DNA from: Fimbriimonadaceae bacterium
GTDB lineage: Bacteria > Armatimonadota > Fimbriimonadia > Fimbriimonadales > Fimbriimonadaceae
Assembly: GCA_039811705.1 (NCBI GenBank)
Contig: JBDHZD010000006.1
Location: 690-64,689 of the forward strand
Direction: 5' to 3'
DNA length: 64,000 nt
The notes under the pieces were generated by a model that worked only from the letters and a program-made list of their open reading frames with translations, ran no database searches and was not told where the DNA came from. Of this stretch, positions 9,590-62,161 are shown piece by piece (within the stretch, counting starts at the first letter, position 1; each line of letters opens with the position of its first letter). Made by a program: the position numbers and the translations under genes.

Positions 9590-10054
9590 ATGAACGCCGT
9601 CGAGTTGCTCGTCCGCCAGATCCAAAGGGGCCAGGAGGGATTCCTCCGCATGATCAACCTCGTGCCCGAAGACAAGCTCGATTGGCAGCCTGACCCGCAA
9701 CTCCGGTCCGCGCTCGACCAATACCAAGAGGTCGCCACCATCCTCGGCTTTACATGGGACGTGTTCGATCGTCGCGAGCTCAAGTTCGAGGCCGAGGACT
9801 TCCAGCGGTACAAGGCGCACAGCAAGACGTTCACGACGCGCGAGGAGTGCGAGGCCGAGTTCCGCCGGACCACGGACGAGCTGATCGCCCGAGTCCGCGC
9901 CCTGAGCGACGCCGACCTCGACGACGAGGTCAAAATGCCCTTCCCCGGCGAGTACCGGCTGTGCGACACCATCCAGTACCACGTTTGGAACATGGCCTAC
10001 CACGAGGGCCAAATCGCGGCCATCCTCCAACGATTGGGCATCGACCCCATGTGA
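9590..10054 (+). CDS. DinB-family (four-helix-bundle, metal-dependent) protein
   Basis: The tracked ORF starts at 9533, but that ATG lies inside the palindrome. MNAVELLVRQIQ at 9590 is the more plausible start. C-terminal WNMAYHEGQIAAIL is DinB-like. Confidence 0.7.
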   Translation: MNAVELLVRQIQRGQEGFLRMINLVPEDKLDWQPDPQLRSALDQYQEVATILGFTWDVFDRRELKFEAEDFQRYKAHSKTFTTREECEAEFRRTTDELIARVRALSDADLDDEVKMPFPGEYRLCDTIQYHVWNMAYHEGQIAAILQRLGIDPM

Positions 10055-10071
10055 TCGCCTAGAATGCGGAC

Positions 10072-11346
10072 ATGATGCGCGCGTTGCACCTCTTGTGGCT
10101 TCTCTGCGCGTCGGCGCTCGTCGCCGCCCAAAGCGAAGTCGCCGATGCCGTCCGGTCGTTGCCCGGAGTCAAAGAGGTCCGCGAGGCGGGCCAAGGAACG
10201 AGCGCCTATCTGGCCCTGACCTTCGAGCAACCCGTAGACCACGCCAACCCCACTGGGCCGAAGTTCACACAACGCGTCTATCTGATTCACACGGGGTTCG
10301 ACCAGCCCGTCATTCTGGGCACCGAAGGCTACTCCGCGGGCCGACCCTCGGGCGGCGAACTGCGGCGAATCCTCGGCACCCCCAACGTCCTCACGGTCGA
10401 ACACCGGTACTTCGGGGGTTCCATCCCTTCGCCCCTCGTCTGGAAGCACCTCACGGTCAAGAACTCGGCGGACGACTTGCACGCGGTCGTCACGTCGTTC
10501 AAGAAGCTGTACAAGGGCAAGTGGGTCTCAACCGGCGCGAGCAAGGGTGGACAGACCGCGTTGTTCCACAAGTGCTTTCACCCCGACGACGTCGATGCCG
10601 TGGTCGCCTACGTCGCGCCGATCAACGTCGCCCAGGAAGACCCGCGTATTCAGATCTTCATGGAACAGGTGGGCACGCCCGCCGAGCGTCAAGCCATCCT
10701 CGACTTCCAGATCGCGCTGCTCAAGCGGCGGGCAGAGGTGTTGCCCTTGCTGAACGTCCGGCCCGACGACTATTCGATGGGCGTGGACAAAGCATTCGAA
10801 TATGGCGTTTTGGAGTTCCCCTTCGCCTACTGGCAGTATGGCGGCAACGCGCGTGAGAACAGCATCCCGAAGCCCGATGCTCCGGCAAAGGAACTGGCGG
10901 ACGCCTACCGAGCCGTCAACCCCATGATCTACTATGGAGACGCAGGGATCAAGCAATTCGAGGCGTTTCAGTACCAAGCGTTCACCGAAGTCGGCTATTA
11001 CAACTACGACATCACCGCACTCAAGCCCTACTTGAACCACAAGAACCCGACCAACATGGACCTGTGCCCTCCCGGCACGAAGGACACGATCCGCTACGAC
11101 GCCAACACGATGGCGTTCGTGTTCCACACGCTCCAATACAAGGCGAACAACATCGTGTACATCTATGGAGAGACGGACCCATGGTCGGCCACGGCCATCC
11201 AGTTGTTGGGACGCACCAACGCCCTCAAGATCACCGTCAAGGGAGCTTGGCACAACGCAAACGTCCGACTGATGTCCGCTGAGCAGAAGCAATCGTTCTT
11301 CGACACTCTGGAATCGTGGCTCGGCATTCCATTGGTTCGATCCTAA
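10072..11346 (+). CDS. Secreted serine peptidase, S28/S37-like alpha/beta hydrolase
   Basis: Signal peptide MMRALHLLWLLCASALVAAQS, EHRYFG motif, nucleophile elbow GASKGG. Confidence 0.7.
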   Translation: MMRALHLLWLLCASALVAAQSEVADAVRSLPGVKEVREAGQGTSAYLALTFEQPVDHANPTGPKFTQRVYLIHTGFDQPVILGTEGYSAGRPSGGELRRILGTPNVLTVEHRYFGGSIPSPLVWKHLTVKNSADDLHAVVTSFKKLYKGKWVSTGASKGGQTALFHKCFHPDDVDAVVAYVAPINVAQEDPRIQIFMEQVGTPAERQAILDFQIALLKRRAEVLPLLNVRPDDYSMGVDKAFEYGVLEFPFAYWQYGGNARENSIPKPDAPAKELADAYRAVNPMIYYGDAGIKQFEAFQYQAFTEVGYYNYDITALKPYLNHKNPTNMDLCPPGTKDTIRYDANTMAFVFHTLQYKANNIVYIYGETDPWSATAIQLLGRTNALKITVKGAWHNANVRLMSAEQKQSFFDTLESWLGIPLVRS

Positions 11347-11364
11347 ACACCCTAAGGAAAATCC

Positions 11365-12297
11365 ATGCACTCTCTCCTTCGATCCACTGTCGCCCTGTGT
11401 CTTGCGGTTGTCGCCGTCCATGGGACAGCGCAGCCTATCGCGTTCTCCTCCGATGGTCTCAAGCTGTGCGAAGCACAGAACGACACGGTCTTGGTGTTCG
11501 ACGTCGCAAAAGGCACCGTTTTGAAAACTCTCGCTCACGCGGACGTGCAGTGCGTGGCCTACTCGCCTAACGGAAAAGCGATCGCGTCGGGCTCTTACGA
11601 CGGAACCGTGCGTATCTGGGACGCGACAACCGGAAAGTCGACCCGCGAAATCACGGTGCCCGGAGACGGCATCACCGATGCTAACGTCACGGCCCTGGCC
11701 TTCTCACCGGACGGCCAAACCTTGGCCACCGCATCGCTTGGCAGCGTGTTCCTCTGGGATGTCGCTGCTGGACGCAGGTTCCTCAAGTTGGATGGCCATG
11801 CCCTTCAGGTGTCCTCCACGTCGTTCTCTCCCGACGGCAAGAGGCTCGTATCTGCAGGAGCCGACGGAGTCGCGGTCGTTTGGGACGTTGAGACCGGAAG
11901 GGCCATGTTCAACGTGCAAGGCCAGAGGATGTGGTGTGCCAAGTTTTCTCCCGACAGCAAGCAGCTTTTGGTCGCAGCAGATGACGGTGCGAGACTCCAC
12001 GATGCCAAAACAGGCGAACTTGTGGCGAGCCTCCCATCCGAGGAAGTTGTTTCTGCAGTCTTCTCCCCTGACGGGAAGTCTATCGTCATAGCATCACGCA
12101 ACGGCTCATCCAGCCTTTGGGAAGTGTCAACAAGCAAGCAGACCGGCGCCCTCTCGAAGGCATCGAAGGATCAGTTCACAAACTATGCCGAGTTCGCACC
12201 CAAGGGTGGGCTGGTGGCCACGTTCGATGGTGCCCGTGTCACGCTCTGGAACGCATCGACGCGCAAACAAGTACGCAAGCTGGGGCCAAGCCGGTGA
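11365..12297 (+). CDS. Secreted WD40-repeat protein
   Basis: Signal peptide MHSLLRSTVALCLAVVAVHGTAQP. Repeated SPNGK/SPDGK...GTVRIWD-type blades. Confidence 0.85.
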   Translation: MHSLLRSTVALCLAVVAVHGTAQPIAFSSDGLKLCEAQNDTVLVFDVAKGTVLKTLAHADVQCVAYSPNGKAIASGSYDGTVRIWDATTGKSTREITVPGDGITDANVTALAFSPDGQTLATASLGSVFLWDVAAGRRFLKLDGHALQVSSTSFSPDGKRLVSAGADGVAVVWDVETGRAMFNVQGQRMWCAKFSPDSKQLLVAADDGARLHDAKTGELVASLPSEEVVSAVFSPDGKSIVIASRNGSSSLWEVSTSKQTGALSKASKDQFTNYAEFAPKGGLVATFDGARVTLWNASTRKQVRKLGPSR

Positions 12298-23881: not shown

Positions 23882-23957
23882 GGCGCCGTACCCAAGTGGC
23901 TAAGGGAAGGGTCTGCAAAACCCTCATTCAGCGGTTCGAATCCGCTCGGCGCCTCCA
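23882..23957 (+). tRNA. tRNA-Cys (anticodon GCA), CCA encoded
   Basis: Acceptor GGCGCCG/CGGCGCC, D arm CCC-AAGTGGCTAA-GGG, anticodon stem AGGGT/ACCCT with loop CTGCAAA, T arm CAGCGGTTCGAATCCGCTC, then T-CCA. 76 nt. Confidence 0.9.
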
Positions 23958-24968: not shown

Positions 24969-26042
24969 TCATTGTGCGCTCGTCCGCCTGCCTGCCACCC
25001 GGGATTCGATTTCGGAAAGTCCAGCGACCATGGGTCGGTGATCAGCCTCGATCAGAACTAGGACCGGACTGTGCCGAATGCCCAACCGCCGCGCCCAGGC
25101 TGTTTCTTCCTTCACCACTGACTCGAGAGACGTGTCAAAAGGGATCCCCATCTCATCCAACAACCGCTGCGAACGGGTTGCGCCGACACCCTGCTCGGCG
25201 AGCACCCCCCTGAGCCATGGTTCAAGTTTCCCCCTGCGATGCGCGGACTCCAGGTGGACCGCGATGTCCAGGTCCTGTCGCCCAAGAGCCAACAGGTTGT
25301 GGCGAAACACGATCCTGAACCCAGCGCCAGAATCGCGCAGTTTGAACAGGCGGTCGAGAGCCTCCCTGCAGGCAGGACACGAGAGTTCGCCAACCACAAC
25401 AACGGTCCGGCCCGAGTCTTCTCCGCCCACCGAGGGGCGTTCGTGACCGACGATACTGTCCGGCGGCATCGAAGCGATCGTTTTCTCAAGTTCAAGGTGT
25501 GTATCCCATAGGCGCAAAGGATCGATGGCCAGGACCAACGACAAACCCACACCCGCCAACAGCGCCACCGGCTGCTGCCAAGGCCGTCGGACCTGTGGTT
25601 CGGGTTCACCCAGGCAACCCTCTATTCCGTGAGCCACCAACAGGAGGCACCAGGTCAGCGCCGACGCCAAGCACCATGCGCAGGTCGTCCGCAACGTACT
25701 CACCGAGTACAACGTCAGCAAGAAGCTGGCCAATGTACCGGTGCCAGACAAAACGTAAGAAGCCAAGCGACACGATTCGCATCGACCGCCCACGACGAGT
25801 CTGGCGTTCGTTGCGAACAGAGCGACGTAAGCCCCGAGTCCCCAGAAAGCGACAGGCACGCCCAGCACGGCACTCCACCGGCTTCGCAGAACTTGGAGAC
25901 AACCTTCTCCGGAACGGCAGACAACGGGAACCAGCCCGGCCGCGTGCAGACTCAAGTAGAGCGTCACGAACAAACCGACTGAACTCAACACCAACCTGAC
26001 CCAAGTCCAATCGACTCGCTTCCATAAAGAAAAACTGAACAA
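24969..26042 (-). CDS. VKOR-family membrane thiol oxidoreductase fused to a DsbA/thioredoxin-like domain
   Basis: Loop Cys pair VVCRSGEGC, TM CxxC (TCAWCL), and C-terminal domain with SCPACREAL. The likely start is TTG 26042, 9 nt after AAGGAGG. The tracked start is TTG 26063. Confidence 0.8.
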   Translation of the reverse strand: MFSFSLWKRVDWTWVRLVLSSVGLFVTLYLSLHAAGLVPVVCRSGEGCLQVLRSRWSAVLGVPVAFWGLGAYVALFATNARLVVGGRCESCRLASYVLSGTGTLASFLLTLYSVSTLRTTCAWCLASALTWCLLLVAHGIEGCLGEPEPQVRRPWQQPVALLAGVGLSLVLAIDPLRLWDTHLELEKTIASMPPDSIVGHERPSVGGEDSGRTVVVVGELSCPACREALDRLFKLRDSGAGFRIVFRHNLLALGRQDLDIAVHLESAHRRGKLEPWLRGVLAEQGVGATRSQRLLDEMGIPFDTSLESVVKEETAWARRLGIRHSPVLVLIEADHRPMVAGLSEIESRVAGRRTSAQ

Positions 26043-26056
26043 TTTTCGGATCCTCC

Positions 26057-26085
26057 TTGACAATGCGGAATAGACCTGATAGACT
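26057..26085 (+). promoter_or_regulatory. Sigma70-type promoter TTGACA-N17-TAGACT for the 26129-28101 operon
   Basis: TTGACA at 26057-26062, 17-nt spacer, TAGACT at 26080-26085. The RBS GAGGAG lies 8 nt before ATG 26129. Confidence 0.45.
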
Positions 26086-53927: not shown

Positions 53928-54244
53928 GGAGTCGGCCAGACGGCGGCCTCGGCGCAAGCCGGGGAGGAAAGTCCGGACTTCACAGGGCGCGGCGCCCCGG
54001 GCAATCGGGGGCGAGGCGACTCGACGGAAAGTGCCACAGAAACAAACCGCCCCGACTCGTCGGGGTAAGGGTGAAATGGTGAGGTAAGAGCTCACCGGCG
54101 TCCCGGGCAACCGGACGGCCGGGCAAACCCCGCCGGAAGCAAGGCCAAATAGGGAGGGGCTGACGCGGCCCGCCGACCCTCCGGGTTGGCCGCATAGACA
54201 AATCGCCGTCCAAGACAGAATCCGGCTTATCGGCCGACTCCACC
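53928..54244 (+). ncRNA. rnpB: RNase P RNA, bacterial type A
   Basis: P1 pairs GGAGTCGGCC with GGCCGACTCC. Conserved regions GAGGAAAGTCCGGAC, GAAAGTGCCACAGAAA, GGTAAGGGTGAAA, GGTAAGAGCTCACC and ACAGAATCCGGCTTATCGGCC are present. Compact, about 317 nt. Confidence 0.9.
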
Positions 54245-54337
54245 TCCAAAACCCTGTAGGATTGCCGGGTTTCCGCCGATACCTGCCTTGGCGGAACTCG
54301 GAAACGAGCGCCGCCACCAACAGGAAAACCGAGAAGC

Positions 54338-54601
54338 ATGGCCCGAATGCGCTCCACGTCCCAAGCCGTCTCCATCAGCGTCGCCAGTACGATCACCGGC
54401 GTCGAAGTCCATACCCTGCGCTATTGGGAAAAGGAGTTCGACGCGTTCTTGAACCCCGAGCGAACCCGCGGCGGCCAACGGCGCTACCGGCCCGAAGACA
54501 TCCAGACCGTCTTCGCCATCAAACAGCTTCTCCGCGACGAGATGTTCTCCATCGCCGGGGCGCGCAAGCATCTGGAGCGCACCCACCGGCACGCCGCGTG
54601 A
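54338..54601 (+). CDS. Small MerR-family HTH regulator
   Basis: ITGVEVHTLRYWEKEFD...GGQRRYRPEDI is a MerR-type HTH plus wing. 87 aa. Confidence 0.8.
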   Translation: MARMRSTSQAVSISVASTITGVEVHTLRYWEKEFDAFLNPERTRGGQRRYRPEDIQTVFAIKQLLRDEMFSIAGARKHLERTHRHAA

Positions 54602-54606
54602 CCCCC

Positions 54607-56637
54607 ATGTCCCCCCAATCCCAACTGGCTCTCGAGCAGTTCCGCGACGGTCGCTATCAGGAAGCCGAACGCACCGCCCTCCAATGCCCTCCGGACGAAC
54701 CCGGTCGTTGCGTCGCGCTGGGCATGGTCTACCTGCACACGCAGCGTGAAGCCGAAGCCCTCAGCTGTTTGGAGTCCGCGCCGGACGCCACGGTCGCAGC
54801 CTTGCTGGGCGAGCACCTCGCCGCCCGCCAAGCGATGGCCGCCAAGCTGAACCGTAAAGACCCCGAAGGCGAACGCATGACCGCCAGGTTCCAGTCGCTG
54901 GGCTACGCATTGCCTAAGCAAGGCGTCCGCCTGAGCGCATGCCTCATCGTCAAGGACGAAGCCGCCACGATCGACGCGTGCCTCAAGAGCCTGAGGGATG
55001 TCGTCGACGAGATCGTGGTGGTGGACACCGGCTCCACGGACGACACGATCGCTCGGGCCAAGAAGCACGGTGCGAAGGTCTACCATGCCGAGTGGACCGA
55101 CGACTTCGCCGCGGCGCGCAACGTCTCCCTGCAGCACGCTTCCGGCGATTGGGCGCTGTGGATCGACGCGGACGAAACGCTCGACCCTTCGAGCGCCGAC
55201 GCCATCCGCGAAGCCCTGATGCGGCCCCAGTTCGGCGGCTTCTTCGTGCGCATCGTGAACTATCTGGCCGACACGGGTCAAGCCGCACAATACGTCCACC
55301 GACCGATCCGTCTGTTTCGGCTGGCCGAGGGCGTGAAGTTCGTGGGCCGCATCCACGAGCAGGTTTCGCCGTCGATTCAGGCCACGGGAAGACCATGCGC
55401 CAACCTCGACGGCGTGGTGCTGCACCACTCGGGCTATCGCCCACAGGCGATGCGCGACAAGAACAAACTCGAGCGCACGATCTCGATGCTCGAGCGCGAG
55501 GTGGCCGAGCGGCCCGAGGACGGTTTCCAGTGGTTCAACCTGGCCAACGTGCTGAGCGTCGCTGGCCGGTATGCGGACGCCGAACACGCTGCGGTCCAAG
55601 CCAGCCGAAACTTTCCGCCCAAGGCTTCGTTTGTCGCGCCGGTCTACCACCTGATGGCGGTCAGCCGCATCGAGTTGGGCCGCCCGCAAGATGCCCTCGC
55701 GGCGTGCGACGAGGTGGAGCGATTGGGCCTGCACAACATCGTCAACCAGTTCAACCGTGCCCATGCTCTGATGCGGCTGCGAAGGCTCGATGAAGCGCTT
55801 GAAGCCGTCCGCGCGTGCGACGGCATGGAGTGGAACCCCGACATCCCCGGCGACTACGGCATAGTCACCCACAAGAAGCACGTTCTGGAAGGGCAAATTC
55901 TCGCGCAATCGGGTCGTTTGGACGAGGCGCTTGTCGCATTCGACGCTGCATTGGCCGTGGATCCGGATTACGACGTAGTGCTGTACTCCAAGGCGGCCAC
56001 ACTGGAACAGAAAGGCGACAAGGAACAGGCCAAGGCCGCCTATGAACGAGTGGTTGGCAGCGAAGCCCTCGACCTGCCCGCGCGCAAGGGCGCGATGCGC
56101 ATGCAACTCGCCTTAGGCGAATACGAACACGCCATCGCGATGGGCCGAGAGACTTGGGTGCGTTACATGGACGAGGACGCCTGGCTCCTTTGGGCGGGCG
56201 CCGCGGAACAGGCCAACAACCCCGTCGCCCTCGATGTGTGCTATCAGGCCTACGCGCAAGCCAACACGCCTACTCCGCAGATGTGGATCAATTGGGGACG
56301 CGTCCAAGAAGCCTTGGACAAACCTCAAAGCGCGTACGACTGCTATGCCGAAGCCATGAAGGCCGCACCACACGATCCGAACGCGTGCTTCAACGCGGCC
56401 GACCTGCTATACCGGTTGGGCTTGCACCACGAGGCCGCCGTTCTCTATCAAAACGGCCTGCAACTGGATTCGATGAAACCCGAAGGCTGGTTCTGCTTGG
56501 GCAACTGTCTGGCGCAGCTCGGCTTGGCCGATGGGGCTCGGCTGGCCTATGGCAAGACGCTCGAGCTCGACCCGCAACACGCTGGGGCGCAGCACAACCT
56601 GTCGCTGTTCGACGCGAGCCAACCCAAGGCTGCCTAG
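54607..56637 (+). CDS. TPR-repeat / family-2 glycosyltransferase fusion protein
   Basis: I trimmed the ORF to ATG 54607. The GT2 core is LSACLIVKDEAATIDACL...VVVDTGSTDDT...WIDADE, flanked by TPR repeats. Confidence 0.85.
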   Translation: MSPQSQLALEQFRDGRYQEAERTALQCPPDEPGRCVALGMVYLHTQREAEALSCLESAPDATVAALLGEHLAARQAMAAKLNRKDPEGERMTARFQSLGYALPKQGVRLSACLIVKDEAATIDACLKSLRDVVDEIVVVDTGSTDDTIARAKKHGAKVYHAEWTDDFAAARNVSLQHASGDWALWIDADETLDPSSADAIREALMRPQFGGFFVRIVNYLADTGQAAQYVHRPIRLFRLAEGVKFVGRIHEQVSPSIQATGRPCANLDGVVLHHSGYRPQAMRDKNKLERTISMLEREVAERPEDGFQWFNLANVLSVAGRYADAEHAAVQASRNFPPKASFVAPVYHLMAVSRIELGRPQDALAACDEVERLGLHNIVNQFNRAHALMRLRRLDEALEAVRACDGMEWNPDIPGDYGIVTHKKHVLEGQILAQSGRLDEALVAFDAALAVDPDYDVVLYSKAATLEQKGDKEQAKAAYERVVGSEALDLPARKGAMRMQLALGEYEHAIAMGRETWVRYMDEDAWLLWAGAAEQANNPVALDVCYQAYAQANTPTPQMWINWGRVQEALDKPQSAYDCYAEAMKAAPHDPNACFNAADLLYRLGLHHEAAVLYQNGLQLDSMKPEGWFCLGNCLAQLGLADGARLAYGKTLELDPQHAGAQHNLSLFDASQPKAA

Positions 56638-56700
56638 CTGAGAGCCGCAGCCAGCGTGCTCCCAGCGATCGCAGAATAGTCAAAAAAACCGATCTGGGCA

Positions 56701-56730
56701 TTGACATGACCCTCATAATCGTGATATCGT
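56701..56730 (+). promoter_or_regulatory. Sigma70-type promoter TTGACA-N18-TATCGT, 9 nt upstream of GTG 56740
   Basis: TTGACA at 56701-56706, 18-nt spacer, TATCGT at 56725-56730. No SD sequence before GTG 56740, so the transcript would be leaderless or near-leaderless. Confidence 0.35.
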
Positions 56731-56739
56731 TCATGCATT

Positions 56740-57141
56740 GTGAGACTCAAGCTGGAAGCCGTTGTCGTCTTCGGTGGGGTTTTGGCGAGCTTTGCGCTGG
56801 CGATTCCACCAAGTCCTTGTGTGCCGCCAAATCTATGTCCGGAGTGAGTGTGGTCCCAGAATGGACAAGGTTGCGGGCCGACCTCAGTCATCGAAACGGT
56901 GAACACCAACCAGAATGTGAACCTGAAGTACTGCACGAAGCGCAACCCAGAGTTCCACGGGTGTCCGGTTCCCGTAGGCCAATGCAACGAAGAAGAGTGG
57001 TGGTACTACACCAAGGCTGAGATTCGATGCGTGAACCAAACCACGGGCGCGTATACCGTGGTTGGAACGTGTGCTTGGGCCGTGTTGAGTAGAACGAAGT
57101 CCGGCCACATGTGTCCGGCGTGCTTGGAACCCGTGGAGTAA
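56740..57141 (+). CDS. Cys-rich secreted protein whose signal peptide (56740-56844) is separated from the mature domain (tracked ORF 56848..57141) by an in-frame TGA
   Basis: The same frame reads GTG-MRLKLEAVVVFGGVLASFALAIPPSPCVPPNLCPE-TGA(56845-56847)-VWSQNGQGCGPTS... The downstream part has 10 Cys and no signal peptide of its own. Confidence 0.5.
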
Positions 57142-57145
57142 ATGG

Positions 57146-57727
57146 ATGCGCAGAACGGTCATAATACGCGGGTGGACTTTGGTCGAGGTTCTTGGTGTCG
57201 CCATGATCTTGGCTGTCTTGGCGGGCATCGTTGCGCTCGTCGCTGGGCCCCGCATGAAGCGGTCGGCAACCGTCGCCGAGGCTGGCAACCACCTTCGCCA
57301 GCTTTCGTTCGCGCTCAACCTCTACATGAACGAGCACGACGGATTGCCGCCGAGGACGATCGAGCCGTTGCTGAGCGGCCTCCCGGCTCGGGACCCGCTT
57401 GGAGGTTCGTGGCTCTACTCCTGGGTTCGGTTCACTCCCGACCGTGAAGGAATTGACTTCGCCGACTATGGCTTCGAAATCGGCAAAGACGCTGTCTTTC
57501 GCTGCTCCCGAGTCCACAACCATCGAGGCAAGGTCGAAACCCTGGTAATGCGCGTTGACGGACATCCGCCGATCGTGCAACATGTGCCCATCCTGGATGC
57601 GGGCCAGAAACTTGGCCTGCTTGGGTCTCGTTTGGATGGCAGTGTCGGCTGGTTCCCCTCGCCTCCCAATTGGGAACTGGCCCTGCCCCAAGGCCAAGAC
57701 GACCCGAACAATCCCGGACGGCGCTGA
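57146..57727 (+). CDS. Prepilin-type N-terminal cleavage/methylation protein (DUF1559-like pseudopilin)
   Basis: MRRTVIIRG|WTLVEVLGVAMILAVLAGIV (G at -1, E at +5), then AEAGNHLRQLSFALNLYMNEHDG. It starts 4 nt after the upstream stop. Confidence 0.8.
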   Translation: MRRTVIIRGWTLVEVLGVAMILAVLAGIVALVAGPRMKRSATVAEAGNHLRQLSFALNLYMNEHDGLPPRTIEPLLSGLPARDPLGGSWLYSWVRFTPDREGIDFADYGFEIGKDAVFRCSRVHNHRGKVETLVMRVDGHPPIVQHVPILDAGQKLGLLGSRLDGSVGWFPSPPNWELALPQGQDDPNNPGRR

Positions 57728-58536
57728 TGATTGCGACCTGGCGTTGGCGGGGCGTTGGCATCTTTGCGATGCTGGCAAGTGCCTTGTGGCTCGCAGTCGG
57801 GAACTGCTCCGAGTGCGCAAGGCATGGATCGCTCGCAGTTGGACTGGCATGGGCGGGATTCGCATATGCGTTGCTAATTTCGTTCACGATCGCAAAGTGG
57901 GCACCGGGTTGGATTCAATCTGTCGCTTGGGTGGCGGGCTTAGGTGCCAGCGTGGTTGGCCTTTGGATGATCAGCTTGCTGACCACCCGCTCCGGACCCT
58001 GCCCGTGGTGCCTGACGTTTTGGGCAGGCCATTACGGGTGGGTACTGCATCAAGATGCCTGGAACAAGCGACAAAGAGTTCTGTTCGTTGCCGCAATGGC
58101 AGCTTCCCTATTGGGCCTCACTGCCGTCCGGATCGATCGAGACGCTGCCTTGGAAGTCGAGACGTTTGCTTTGGCGTACCTGCCTGCGTCCTCACCTGCG
58201 CCCCAGTGGATCGCGCCAGGCCGATCCATCCATCCGGACATCGTCTTGGACGATGGAGAAACCGCACTCATTGTTTGGACCGAATGCGCCCCGTGCGGCA
58301 GGGCGGCTGCGAAGTCGGGCCTCGCCGCATTCGAGCGGGCGTATCCGAAACGAAAGGTGTGGACTTGGCCCGGAGGCGTTGCGACTCTGCCCCAATCCCT
58401 CGGCACGGACTACCTGATACCGCCCTTGACGTTCTTCGACGACTTCGGGATGAGGCCCGACGACCCTCCAGCGTTCGTCGTTTTGCGGGGTCACAAAGTC
58501 GAACGAATCGGCAGACTCGCCGACTTCCGGCAGTAG
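57727..58536 (+). CDS. VKOR/DsbB-like polytopic membrane protein fused to a thioredoxin-like domain
   Basis: ATG 57727 overlaps the upstream TGA (TGATG). There are 4-5 TM segments with CSEC and CPWC, and the C-terminal domain has WTECAPCGRAA. Confidence 0.65.
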   Translation: MIATWRWRGVGIFAMLASALWLAVGNCSECARHGSLAVGLAWAGFAYALLISFTIAKWAPGWIQSVAWVAGLGASVVGLWMISLLTTRSGPCPWCLTFWAGHYGWVLHQDAWNKRQRVLFVAAMAASLLGLTAVRIDRDAALEVETFALAYLPASSPAPQWIAPGRSIHPDIVLDDGETALIVWTECAPCGRAAAKSGLAAFERAYPKRKVWTWPGGVATLPQSLGTDYLIPPLTFFDDFGMRPDDPPAFVVLRGHKVERIGRLADFRQ

Positions 58537-58591
58537 CTCGGCCCGACTTCGGGCGACGTCAGCCGCCCAGCGGCAAGGTATCTTCGGGGGC

Positions 58592-59179
58592 GTGAACGTG
58601 CTCCCGATCCTGCTCGCCGTCGCCATGGCCGCGCCCCAAAGCACGACCTACGTCCCCGCTCAAACCAAGGTCGCCCTGCTGCCGACGGTCAACACGTCGT
58701 CCGAGAAGTGGCAGGAACTGAAGGATCAGCAGTGCCAGCGCGGCGATGGCACGCTCAGGACGCTGTTCGAATCGTACGGTTTCCACGTGCTTTCGGCGGC
58801 TGCGGTCAAGACCTATCTCGACAAGGAGTCCATTGATCTGACCGACGAGGAGAACTGGAACCGCCGCACCCTGGCCGACATCGGCAAGGGCCTCGGCGTG
58901 CGCCTGATCGCCTTCGCGCCCGTGATCGACACGCTCCAGAAGAAGGACGAGAAGCTGTTCGTGACCAGCCAGGTCGGCATCGCCAAGCTCCGCGTGTGGC
59001 TGCTCGATACCGAAACCGGCACGGCTCACCTCACGGGCAAGCCGCTCGAGGGCAAGTCGCAGAACGACTTTGGCGGCAAGGGCAGCGACCGGCAAATCCG
59101 GGCCGTGGACCTTGCCTTGGAGGCTGCGCTCAAGGAGTTCTTCAAGCCCTACAAGAAGGTCAAGACCGCCGCGAGGTAG
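58592..59179 (+). CDS. Secreted hypothetical protein
   Basis: Signal peptide MNVLPILLAVAMAAPQS. 195 aa. No family recognised. Confidence 0.55.
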   Translation: MNVLPILLAVAMAAPQSTTYVPAQTKVALLPTVNTSSEKWQELKDQQCQRGDGTLRTLFESYGFHVLSAAAVKTYLDKESIDLTDEENWNRRTLADIGKGLGVRLIAFAPVIDTLQKKDEKLFVTSQVGIAKLRVWLLDTETGTAHLTGKPLEGKSQNDFGGKGSDRQIRAVDLALEAALKEFFKPYKKVKTAAR

Positions 59180-59731: not shown

Positions 59732-62161
59732 ATGTCCGATGTCAAGCCCCTTACCCTAGACGAACTCGACGACCTCGAACTCGAGGTGGAGTCAACGGGC
59801 GGGGAGGCGTCGGACGAGGGACGCAAGCCCGAAGTCCCGAACGAACTCAACATCCTCCCTCTCCGGGATTCGGTGATCTACCCGATGCTCATCGCGCCGC
59901 TCAGCGTTGGGCGAGAGTCGGGAGTGCAACTCATCGACGAGTCGGTCGTGGGCAACAATCGCGTCATCGGCGTGGTCGCCCAGCGTGCACCACAGATCGA
60001 CAGACCTGACTTCGACGACGTGTTCGACCACGGTTGCGCCGTGATCGTGCGAACGTTGGTCAAGCTCCCGGACGGGGTTCGATTGATCGTTCAGGGCGTG
60101 TCCCGCTTCCGCATCGTGGAGCGGTTGCAGGAGCACCCCTACCTGCGCGCAAAGGTCGAAGTGCTCGAAGAGCCCGACACACCCGAGGACAAGAGCGAGG
60201 AAATCGAGGCCCTGCGCCGCTCGATCTCGTCCCTGTTCGAACAGGCCATCCGCCTCTCGCCCACGCTGCCCGAAGAGTTGCGCAGCCTGACGCAAACCGT
60301 CCAAGAAACGAACGTCATGGCCGACCTCGTCGCGGCGCACATGACACTGACCGTCGAAGAAAAGCAAGCGATCCTCGAAGAAGTCAATCTCGAAAAGCGC
60401 CTTCGCAAACTGCTGGAGTTCCTCAGCAAGGAAGTCCGCGTACTCGAACTCACGTCGAAGGTTCAAAGCGAAGTCAACACCGAGCTCAGCAAGAGCCAGC
60501 GAGACTACTACCTGCGCGAACAACTGCGAGCCATCCAGCGCGAGCTCGGCGAAACCGACGACCGCGCGGAAGATCTGGAAGAACTCCAGGAGAAGATCGA
60601 TGCCGCCCAAATGCCCGAGGAGGCGCTGAAGGAAGTCCACCGCGAGTTCGAGCGGCTAAAGCGAATGTCGCCCGGCGCGCCGGAATACACAGTCGCGCGC
60701 ACCTACGTGGACTGGATGGTCAGCATCCCTTGGTCGAAGTTCACCGAAGACATTCTCGAGTTGTCCCGGGTCAAAGACGTTCTGGACGCCGACCACTACG
60801 GCCTGGAGAAAATCAAAGACCGCATCCTCGAGTTCTTGGCCGTTCGCAAAGTCAAGACCGACGGCAAGATCCGCCAGCCCATCCTGTGCTTCTCGGGCCC
60901 TCCGGGAGTCGGCAAAACATCGCTGGGCCGGTCGATCGCCCATGCCATGGGCCGCAAATTCATCCGTATCTCCCTCGGCGGAATGCGGGACGAAGCCGAA
61001 ATCCGCGGTCACCGTAGAACGTACATCGGGGCTCTCCCGGGCCAGATCGTTCAGGGTCTGCGAAGGTGCGAGAGCCGCAACCCTGTCTTCATGCTCGACG
61101 AAATCGACAAGCTGGGCAACGACTTCCGTGGCGACCCCTCGTCTGCTCTGCTCGAAGTGCTCGACCCCGAACAGAACAGCGCCTTCCGAGACCACTACAT
61201 CGACGCGCCGCTCGATCTGAGCAATGTCTTCTTCATCACGACGGCCAACCGCCTGGACACCATCCCGCCGCCACTGCGCGACCGCATGGAGATCATCGAG
61301 CTCGGCGGCTACACCGAGGAGGAGAAGACCCAGATCGCCATCCGACACCTGATTCCAAAACAGATTGCCGAGCACGGGTTGAAGAAGTCCCAGATCGCGT
61401 TCAAAGAAGACGCGATCCACGCCTTGGTGCGTTTCTACACTCGCGAGGCGGGCGTTCGGAACTTGGAGCGCGAGATCGCCAGCGTGGTCCGCAAGGTGAC
61501 CAGGCAAGTCGCCGAGGGACGAACGTCGAAGCTGACCGTGACCAAGAAGTTCCTCGAAACCGCCTTGGGTGCGCCGCGCCATCAGTACGAGGAAGTGCTT
61601 GAGCGCGATATGAAGCCGGGCACGTCCGTCGGCCTGGTGTGGACCCCCGTGGGCGGCGACATCGTGTTCATCGAGACCGCCCTGCTTCCCGGCTCGAAGG
61701 GGCTGATCCTGACCGGCCAACTGGGCGACGTGATGAAGGAGTCGGCCATGGCCGCGCTCTCCTACCTGCGCAGCAGAGCCGCCAAGTTGGGCGTGGACCC
61801 GAAGGTCTTCGTGGACAACGAACTCCATATCCACGTGCCCGCCGGCGCCGTGCCGAAAGACGGGCCGAGCGCGGGCATCACGATCATGGTGGCTCTCGCC
61901 TCCTTGCTTACGGGTCGGGCCGTGGCGCCGCGGCTGGCAATGACCGGCGAGATGACCTTGCAAGGCCAAGTGTTGCCCGTCGGAGGCATCAAGGAGAAGG
62001 TGCTGGCCGCTCACCGTGCGGGCGTGACCACGCTGCTCCTCCCCGATCGCAACCAGAAGGACTTTCTTGAGGACGTGCCCAAGGAAGTGCGCGACCAACT
62101 GACGGTGCACTTCGTCAAGGACGCCGATCAGGTGCTGCGGTTGGCTCTGCCGAAGGGCTAG
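59732..62161 (+). CDS. lon: ATP-dependent Lon protease
   Basis: LON N-domain (LPLRDSVIYP), Walker A GPPGVGKTS, protease Ser site PKDGPSAGIT. 809 aa. Confidence 0.95.
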   Translation: MSDVKPLTLDELDDLELEVESTGGEASDEGRKPEVPNELNILPLRDSVIYPMLIAPLSVGRESGVQLIDESVVGNNRVIGVVAQRAPQIDRPDFDDVFDHGCAVIVRTLVKLPDGVRLIVQGVSRFRIVERLQEHPYLRAKVEVLEEPDTPEDKSEEIEALRRSISSLFEQAIRLSPTLPEELRSLTQTVQETNVMADLVAAHMTLTVEEKQAILEEVNLEKRLRKLLEFLSKEVRVLELTSKVQSEVNTELSKSQRDYYLREQLRAIQRELGETDDRAEDLEELQEKIDAAQMPEEALKEVHREFERLKRMSPGAPEYTVARTYVDWMVSIPWSKFTEDILELSRVKDVLDADHYGLEKIKDRILEFLAVRKVKTDGKIRQPILCFSGPPGVGKTSLGRSIAHAMGRKFIRISLGGMRDEAEIRGHRRTYIGALPGQIVQGLRRCESRNPVFMLDEIDKLGNDFRGDPSSALLEVLDPEQNSAFRDHYIDAPLDLSNVFFITTANRLDTIPPPLRDRMEIIELGGYTEEEKTQIAIRHLIPKQIAEHGLKKSQIAFKEDAIHALVRFYTREAGVRNLEREIASVVRKVTRQVAEGRTSKLTVTKKFLETALGAPRHQYEEVLERDMKPGTSVGLVWTPVGGDIVFIETALLPGSKGLILTGQLGDVMKESAMAALSYLRSRAAKLGVDPKVFVDNELHIHVPAGAVPKDGPSAGITIMVALASLLTGRAVAPRLAMTGEMTLQGQVLPVGGIKEKVLAAHRAGVTTLLLPDRNQKDFLEDVPKEVRDQLTVHFVKDADQVLRLALPKG

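Follow-up and report, generated by a model that had tools for sequence, protein, structure and literature searches.

In E. coli fdhF, selenocysteine is encoded by a UGA codon together with a SelB-binding SECIS hairpin, and bacterial selenoproteins are known in which this residue forms a CxxU or UxxC motif. We analysed a 64,000-nucleotide stretch of DNA (hereafter the window) in which an in-frame TGA interrupts a gene for a small Cys-rich protein, gene 1. Like bacterial selenoprotein genes, gene 1 has an in-frame UGA within a conserved open reading frame (ORF), a Cys at position −3 and, downstream, a sequence that can be drawn as a stem-loop. Unlike them, it has homologues with Gly and not Cys or selenocysteine at this position, its hairpin lacks conservation and does not rise above background, the TGA occurs only in one very young lineage, and no selenocysteine machinery was seen in the available 64 kb.

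The locus also resembles an ordinary nonsense pseudogene, or a segregating loss-of-function allele, in having a stop created by one base, intact alleles in the closest relatives, inheritance within one lineage and no decay in the rest of the gene. Nothing essential sets it apart from ordinary nonsense alleles; the TGA sits exactly between the signal peptide and the mature domain, and this placement, together with the Cys three residues upstream, mimics the CxxU selenoprotein motif. The phenomenon at the TGA is of an ordinary kind. What looked like a textbook candidate, with a CxxU motif and a hairpin, is very probably nothing more than a nonsense allele, and the comparison of near-identical contigs settled what reasoning from motifs could not.

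Layout of gene 1 and the in-frame TGA

Gene 1, as read in the window, occupies 56740-57141 on the forward strand. From the start codon GTG 56740, a signal-peptide-like ORF of 35 codons is translated as MRLKLEAVVVFGGVLASFALAIPPSPCVPPNLCPE and is closed by the TGA at 56845-56847. In this 5′ part (56740-56844, +), a Sec-type signal peptide, MRLKLEAVVVFGGVLASFALA, is followed by the initial 14 residues of the mature protein, which include the conserved C27 and C33. The part aligns with the N-terminal ends of P0001 and L003, both of which are full-length homologues. Directly after the TGA, GTG 56848 stands in the same frame, and from it a Cys-rich ORF of 97 aa, beginning VWSQNGQGCGPTS and ending CPACLEPVE, extends to TAA 57139-57141. 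This 3′ part (56848-57141, +; 97 codons) corresponds to the Cys-rich mature domain and holds eight of the ten conserved Cys. Full-length homologues align across the codon, and the frame is therefore coding on both sides of the TGA. At the level of the reading frame, the Cys-rich domain is severed from its signal peptide in the lineage of the window.

This layout agrees with the preliminary description of the locus, which had also held that the 97-aa ORF has neither a signal peptide nor a ribosome-binding site of its own. The product would indeed lack a signal peptide, but a GGAG lies at 56841-56844, 3 nt ahead of GTG 56848, and the second half of that statement does not hold. In a database look-up, no called gene with this 97-aa product was found.

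Upstream of gene 1, a sigma-70-like promoter match was found at 56701-56730 (+), with TTGACA, an 18-nt spacer, TATCGT and a TG before the second hexamer. It fits the consensus at 10 of 12 positions, where 0.2 matches are expected in shuffled sequences, and it is unchanged in most of the related contigs; the segment is a putative promoter. Because the match ends 9 nt 5′ of GTG 56740, the leader of gene 1 would be very short or absent, and the mRNA may be leaderless or nearly leaderless. The start codon itself is polymorphic: at 56737-56742 most contigs read ATT GTG, with the GTG as start, and L006 and L008 read ATG GTG, owing to a T-to-G change at 56739 that creates an ATG one codon upstream. 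The latter form agrees with the M-V-K/R start of the orthologue in Chthonomonas.

The product of intact gene 1 matched no Pfam or NCBIfam family. Its AF2 model (pLDDT 75) contains three long beta-strands, and a PDB fold search with this model matched none of the known folds (best E 0.25, TM<0.25).

In the window, which has a G+C content of ~63%, TGA is the stop codon of 31 of the 47 long ORFs, including gene 2 and ORFs with high GC3, and the genetic code is therefore the standard one. A code with reassigned UGA (table 4 or 25) was considered and rejected, as TGA is the usual stop in the window.

The codon in close and distant relatives

When the conceptual read-through product of gene 1 was used as the query of a protein search, an uninterrupted protein of 133 aa (P0001) was retrieved, the sole difference of which was a Gly at the position of the TGA (...NLCPE-G-VWSQ...). 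A frameshifted version of 96 aa (P0002) was also retrieved. The DNA of the corresponding contigs, L001 and L002, reads GGA where the window has TGA; decoding of UGA as Gly (code 25) as the origin of the Gly in P0001 was accordingly rejected. The gene 2 protein is identical on 20 public contigs, 10 of which were fetched, and one more contig was obtained by a look-up with the gene 3 protein. Among these contigs, ~500 nt around the codon were almost invariant except for the base at 56845. This base is G in nine near-identical contigs (L001, L002, L004, L006, L007, L008, L009, L010 and L013), which have GGA (Gly) at the codon and a protein of 133 or 134 aa that is uninterrupted, apart from the frameshifts described below. 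L008 is the NCBI MAG GCA_048499975.1, in which a gene of 134 aa was called. The intact ORFs of the closest relatives (P0001, 133 aa; L008, 134 aa) differ from the window by one base at the stop. The base is T in the window and in contigs from four other sequencing runs, L005/L016 (SRR30849500), L011 (SRR28740823), L012 (DRR438460) and L017 (SRR19427039). The TGA at 56845-56847 (+) is thus a G-to-T transversion of the GGA codon for Gly36, which is the state of the sister lineage or the ancestral one.

In a table of 6.5-kb haplotypes, all carriers of T shared one flanking haplotype, which we call lineage A. The T is fixed in lineage A, to which the window belongs, and is absent from the sister lineage B. 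Over the compared stretch, the number of substitutions relative to the window was 128 in L005, 69 in L011 and 5 in L012. Because the same T occurs in distinct strains of one haplotype group, it was inherited and is not an artefact of assembly.

Only one other coding change was seen in gene 1 across all contigs. This change, Y89C (57005 A-to-G; L005 and L011), is confined to the TGA background, where it would bring the Cys to eleven and leave one unpaired. It is suggestive of lost constraint, with substitutions far too few for a test. The cassette divergence of 0.23% (see below) is too small for decay of the downstream part to show. Single-nucleotide homopolymer deletions were present in L002 (aligned to 56979) and in L004 (at 56880 and 56682). 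Two of them, at 56979 in L002 and at 56880 in L004, shift the frame of gene 1 in contigs with the G allele, and the chimeric-frame protein P0002 results from such a deletion. These deletions could be further independent inactivations or assembly errors.

More distant relatives were few. A scan of GTDB genomes gave one orthologue, L003, in a MAG of Chthonomonas sp. AMX-MBFR-81, with 55% identity over residues 1-131, the same three-gene order as in the window and GGC (Gly) at the site of the TGA. When 1.84 billion cluster representatives were searched exhaustively with HMMER, no more than seven additional relatives (P0003-P0009) were obtained, and a scan of JGI metagenomes with the family alignment gave no confirmed relative. 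In the alignment of the nine members (P0003-P0009, P0001 and L003), the site of the TGA is Gly in seven, a gap in one and Cys in one (P0008). Glycine is the residue of the family at this site, and the ten conserved Cys of the family, which is the exact number in most members, do not include it. The preliminary description had proposed to inspect orthologues for Cys or TGA at this codon, and had named a sense codon unrelated to Cys as an outcome that would refute its proposal; the nine near-identical contigs carry GGA and L003 carries GGC, which contradicts selenocysteine by that criterion.

P0008, which is ~35-39% identical, has a C-A-G-C motif at the aligned position. This Cys superficially resembles the pairing of selenocysteine and Cys among selenoprotein homologues, and it is the sole observation that leans in that direction. 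Every relative closer than P0008 has Gly, and P0008 carries extra Cys elsewhere. Its gene (L015, 1637-2038) encodes 13 Cys after the signal region, and one Cys of the signal peptide is possibly lipobox-like.

We conclude that the TGA at 56845-56847 is very probably a lineage-specific premature stop, that is, an ordinary nonsense mutation that made gene 1 a recent pseudogene or loss-of-function allele. Among the four alternatives of the preliminary description, this one is well supported by the intact GGA ORFs of the relatives and by the inheritance of T in one lineage. Intact gene 1 encodes a predicted exported protein of 133 aa with a signal peptide and ten conserved Cys. The single substitution from GGA to TGA puts a stop in place of Gly36, and translation from GTG 56740 would end after the signal peptide and 14 residues, leaving a precursor of 35 residues. 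The Cys-rich domain would then no longer be produced as an exported protein in the TGA lineage. An accidental restart at GTG 56848 would yield a fragment that has no signal peptide and stays in the reducing cytoplasm, and full-length protein could arise, in trace amounts, solely by rare near-cognate read-through of the UGA. The other two genes of the cassette, 2 and 3, retain start signals of their own and are intact. As the TGA allele persists in several samples, the truncation appears to be at least tolerated, and some function might conceivably be retained.

Rival readings of the TGA

The preliminary description had pointed to a SECIS-like hairpin (GGTTGCGGGCCGACC, 56869-56883, +) that starts 21 nt after the TGA, with the arms GGTTG and CGACC and the loop CGGGC. 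The fold can be drawn, with a 5-bp stem and a 5-nt loop (−3.2 kcal/mol for the hairpin alone), but it lies within chance expectation, as a hairpin of at least 5 bp starts 10-30 nt downstream of 75% of the 1479 TGA trinucleotides in the window. The minimum free energy of the TGA and the following 60 nt was −18.8 kcal/mol, close to the mean of −18.15 (sd 5.06) over all 1479 sites, 45% of which fold at least as stably. Compared with shuffled controls, the 90-nt region folded no better (z-score +0.62), and a permissive Rfam scan (E ≤ 10) of 56650-57150 returned nothing. The likeness of six bases to the fdhF element, which the preliminary description had pointed out, is uninformative because GGTTGC occurs 64 times in the window. 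The 5′ arm, GGTTGCGG, is made up of the codons of the conserved Q-G-C-G; in Chthonomonas L003, GCAAAT stands in place of the 3′ arm. The hairpin at 56869-56883 was judged, from these comparisons, to be a chance feature of the coding sequence.

An Rfam scan of the window at gathering thresholds detected RNase P RNA and tRNA-Cys only. ARAGORN and Rfam found no tRNA-Sec in the 64-kb window, and SelA, SelB and SelD domains were absent among the 40 long ORFs scanned there, a span of 64 kb that cannot speak for the whole genome. A literature search on the use of selenocysteine in Armatimonadetes found nothing specific.

Decoding of the UGA by SelB and tRNA-Sec with the downstream hairpin, which would create a C-P-E-U redox motif, would be favoured by the conserved coding frame before and after the TGA, by the Cys at the third residue ahead of it, by the small hairpin and by the C-A-G-C of the distant P0008. 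We nevertheless regard it as extremely improbable. The 99.8% identical cassette of the sister lineage has GGA, the 55%-identical orthologue has GGC and Gly occupies the site in most of the family; a one-step change from Gly to selenocysteine would require a SECIS element that was already working by accident. The hairpin is short, weak and made of the conserved Q-G-C-G codons, its 3′ arm is not kept in L003, the folding is no better than that of the median TGA context, and the 64 kb contain neither tRNA-Sec nor sel genes. In addition, the ten conserved Cys are already even in number. An error of sequencing or assembly, with G as the true base at 56845 and gene 1 intact, is just as hard to credit. 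It would explain a single-base difference from nine other contigs, and the homopolymer deletions in L002 and L004 may themselves be errors; but the same T was obtained in four other runs, from contigs that have the flanking haplotype of the window but between 5 and 128 further differences from it, and substitution errors would not recur along a lineage.

Somewhat less remote, and still very improbable, is a functional split gene in which termination at the UGA is followed by reinitiation at GUG 56848, and in which the resulting 97-aa protein is useful although it has no signal peptide. The stop and the start adjoin (TGAGTG), the GGAG precedes the GTG and the downstream ORF is intact. However, the junction is not conserved, since relatives read GGAGTG or GGCGTC within a continuous ORF that has a signal peptide; GGAG and the start codon are only 3 nt apart, too close to favour initiation, no gene caller recorded the 97-aa ORF, and a disulfide-type domain with eight of the ten Cys would be left in the cytoplasm, away from the putative membrane oxidoreductase described below. 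A restart at TGAGTG is physically possible, but because the ORF of the relatives is continuous there, it would be an accidental by-product and not the evolved arrangement that had been considered. UGA is generally the leakiest stop codon, and we also weighed a leaky stop or adaptive attenuation, in which low read-through (e.g., by insertion of Trp) keeps a reduced dose of the protein or the loss itself was selected, for instance because it lets cells evade a phage or predator that recognises the protein. Fixation of the allele in a repeatedly sampled lineage speaks for this reading, and the very recent spread of the cassette across lineages suggests selection on the cassette. Yet no sequence feature that promotes read-through was found, substitution-type knock-outs did not recur independently, the two frameshifts may be errors, and drift of a dispensable gene accounts for the data equally well; we consider this reading improbable. 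We give slightly more room, although we still think it unlikely, to the proposition that the TGA is an adaptive or leaky knock-down of gene 1 within an undescribed cassette that was recently swept or exchanged between lineages. If this were true, the stop codon would be a sign not of neutral decay but of selection that still acts on a new secretion or surface system, for example because cells without the Cys-rich protein evade a phage or predator by which it is recognised.

An ordinary nonsense mutation is thus the reading that we prefer. It carries a caution for selenoprotein calls made from a single genome in G+C-rich DNA, where, as in the window, three quarters of the TGAs precede a small hairpin.

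The three-gene cassette and its surroundings

Gene 1 is followed by two genes on the same strand. Gene 2 (57146-57727, +) starts 4 nt past the stop of gene 1, with a GGAG at 57134-57137, 8 nt before its ATG, and encodes a pseudopilin- or prepilin-like protein of 193 aa with an N-terminal hydrophobic segment of the methylation type. It matched NCBIfam GspG with E 1.6e-4 and Pfam N_methyl with E 0.05, both below the curated cut-offs. Gene 3 (57727-58536, +), the start of which shares 1 nt with the TGA that closes gene 2, encodes a predicted polytopic membrane protein of 269 aa. Three CxxC motifs, C27xxC30, C92xxC95 and C187xPC190, are invariant in its alignment, and the last of them forms a W-T-x-C-x-P-C motif ahead of a helix. 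Gene 3 matched no Pfam or NCBIfam family and, with a profile of four sequences, no PDB sequence; a word-indexed protein search returned its own cluster only. A single-sequence AF2 model of gene 3 was poor (pLDDT 47). For gene 4, Pfam and NCBIfam gave no match.

Two described kinds of system come closest to this arrangement. The prepilin-type N-terminal segment and the weak GspG and N_methyl matches of gene 2 are reminiscent of the GspG-like pseudopilins of type II secretion and type IV pili. Gene 3, as a multi-helix membrane protein with CxxC pairs and a thioredoxin-like W-T-x-C-x-P-C motif at the C-terminus, is reminiscent of dedicated disulfide-forming membrane proteins such as DsbB and VKOR-thioredoxin fusions, and its neighbour is a secreted protein with ten Cys. 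Unlike in those systems, the family matches are below the cut-offs or absent, and the resemblance is one of working principle only and not of membership. Assignment of gene 3 as a VKOR-thioredoxin fusion was rejected, as it had no Pfam VKOR match, no PDB match and an hhalign probability of 1% against the VKOR protein of the window; a relation to DsbB was not detectable. From its motifs, gene 3 is probably a thiol-disulfide oxidoreductase, and it may represent a new family of disulfide-handling membrane proteins.

The trio occurs at 56740-58536 in the window and at 10001-11844 in Chthonomonas L003, where the three genes are likewise adjacent. In two distant metagenome contigs, L014 (2615-4423) and L015 (167-2038), the genes stand in the permuted order 3-2-1, and BLASTP confirmed the homology of all three. 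Judged from gene content and order, the trio is a conserved, unannotated and uncharacterised cassette of Chthonomonas-like (Armatimonadota) bacteria. Motifs and co-occurrence make it plausible that the secreted, disulfide-rich gene 1 protein would be oxidised by the dedicated membrane oxidoreductase of gene 3, with a pilin-like partner.

Segment comparison of lineage A (the window) with lineage B (e.g., L008) showed that the cassette has a history different from that of its flanks. The divergence was 8-13% in the flanking TPR-glycosyltransferase gene (54262-56637) and ~15% in the flanking Lon protease gene (59732-62161), whereas the core of the cassette (56592-58800) differed at 5 of 2209 positions (0.23%). 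In comparison with L004-L013, the block of low divergence spans ~56546-59145 and includes the trio and the start of the next gene. The contrast between 0.23% in the cassette and 8-15% in the flanks points to a very recent recombination, transfer or gene-specific sweep between the lineages. Inside the block, A and B are separated by only about four differences, to which the nonsense mutation belongs. The uncharacterised cassette and its near-identity across lineages are the only parts of the locus that merit further attention.

Several other features of the window were noted. A bacterial class A RNase P RNA (53928-54245, +; 247.7 bits) lies directly upstream of the TPR-glycosyltransferase gene, for which the mechanical ORF from 54262 has 791 aa and the gene called in related contigs 676 aa. 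A VKOR-family gene (24972-26063, −; Pfam E 2.6e-16) is located near tRNA-Cys(GCA) at 23882-23957 (+), the single tRNA gene of the window, and VKOR presumably serves the organism in the general formation of disulfides. WD40 domains are relatively uncommon in bacteria, and a WD40 beta-propeller protein of 310 aa is encoded at 11365-12294 (+; WD40 E 3.8e-37).
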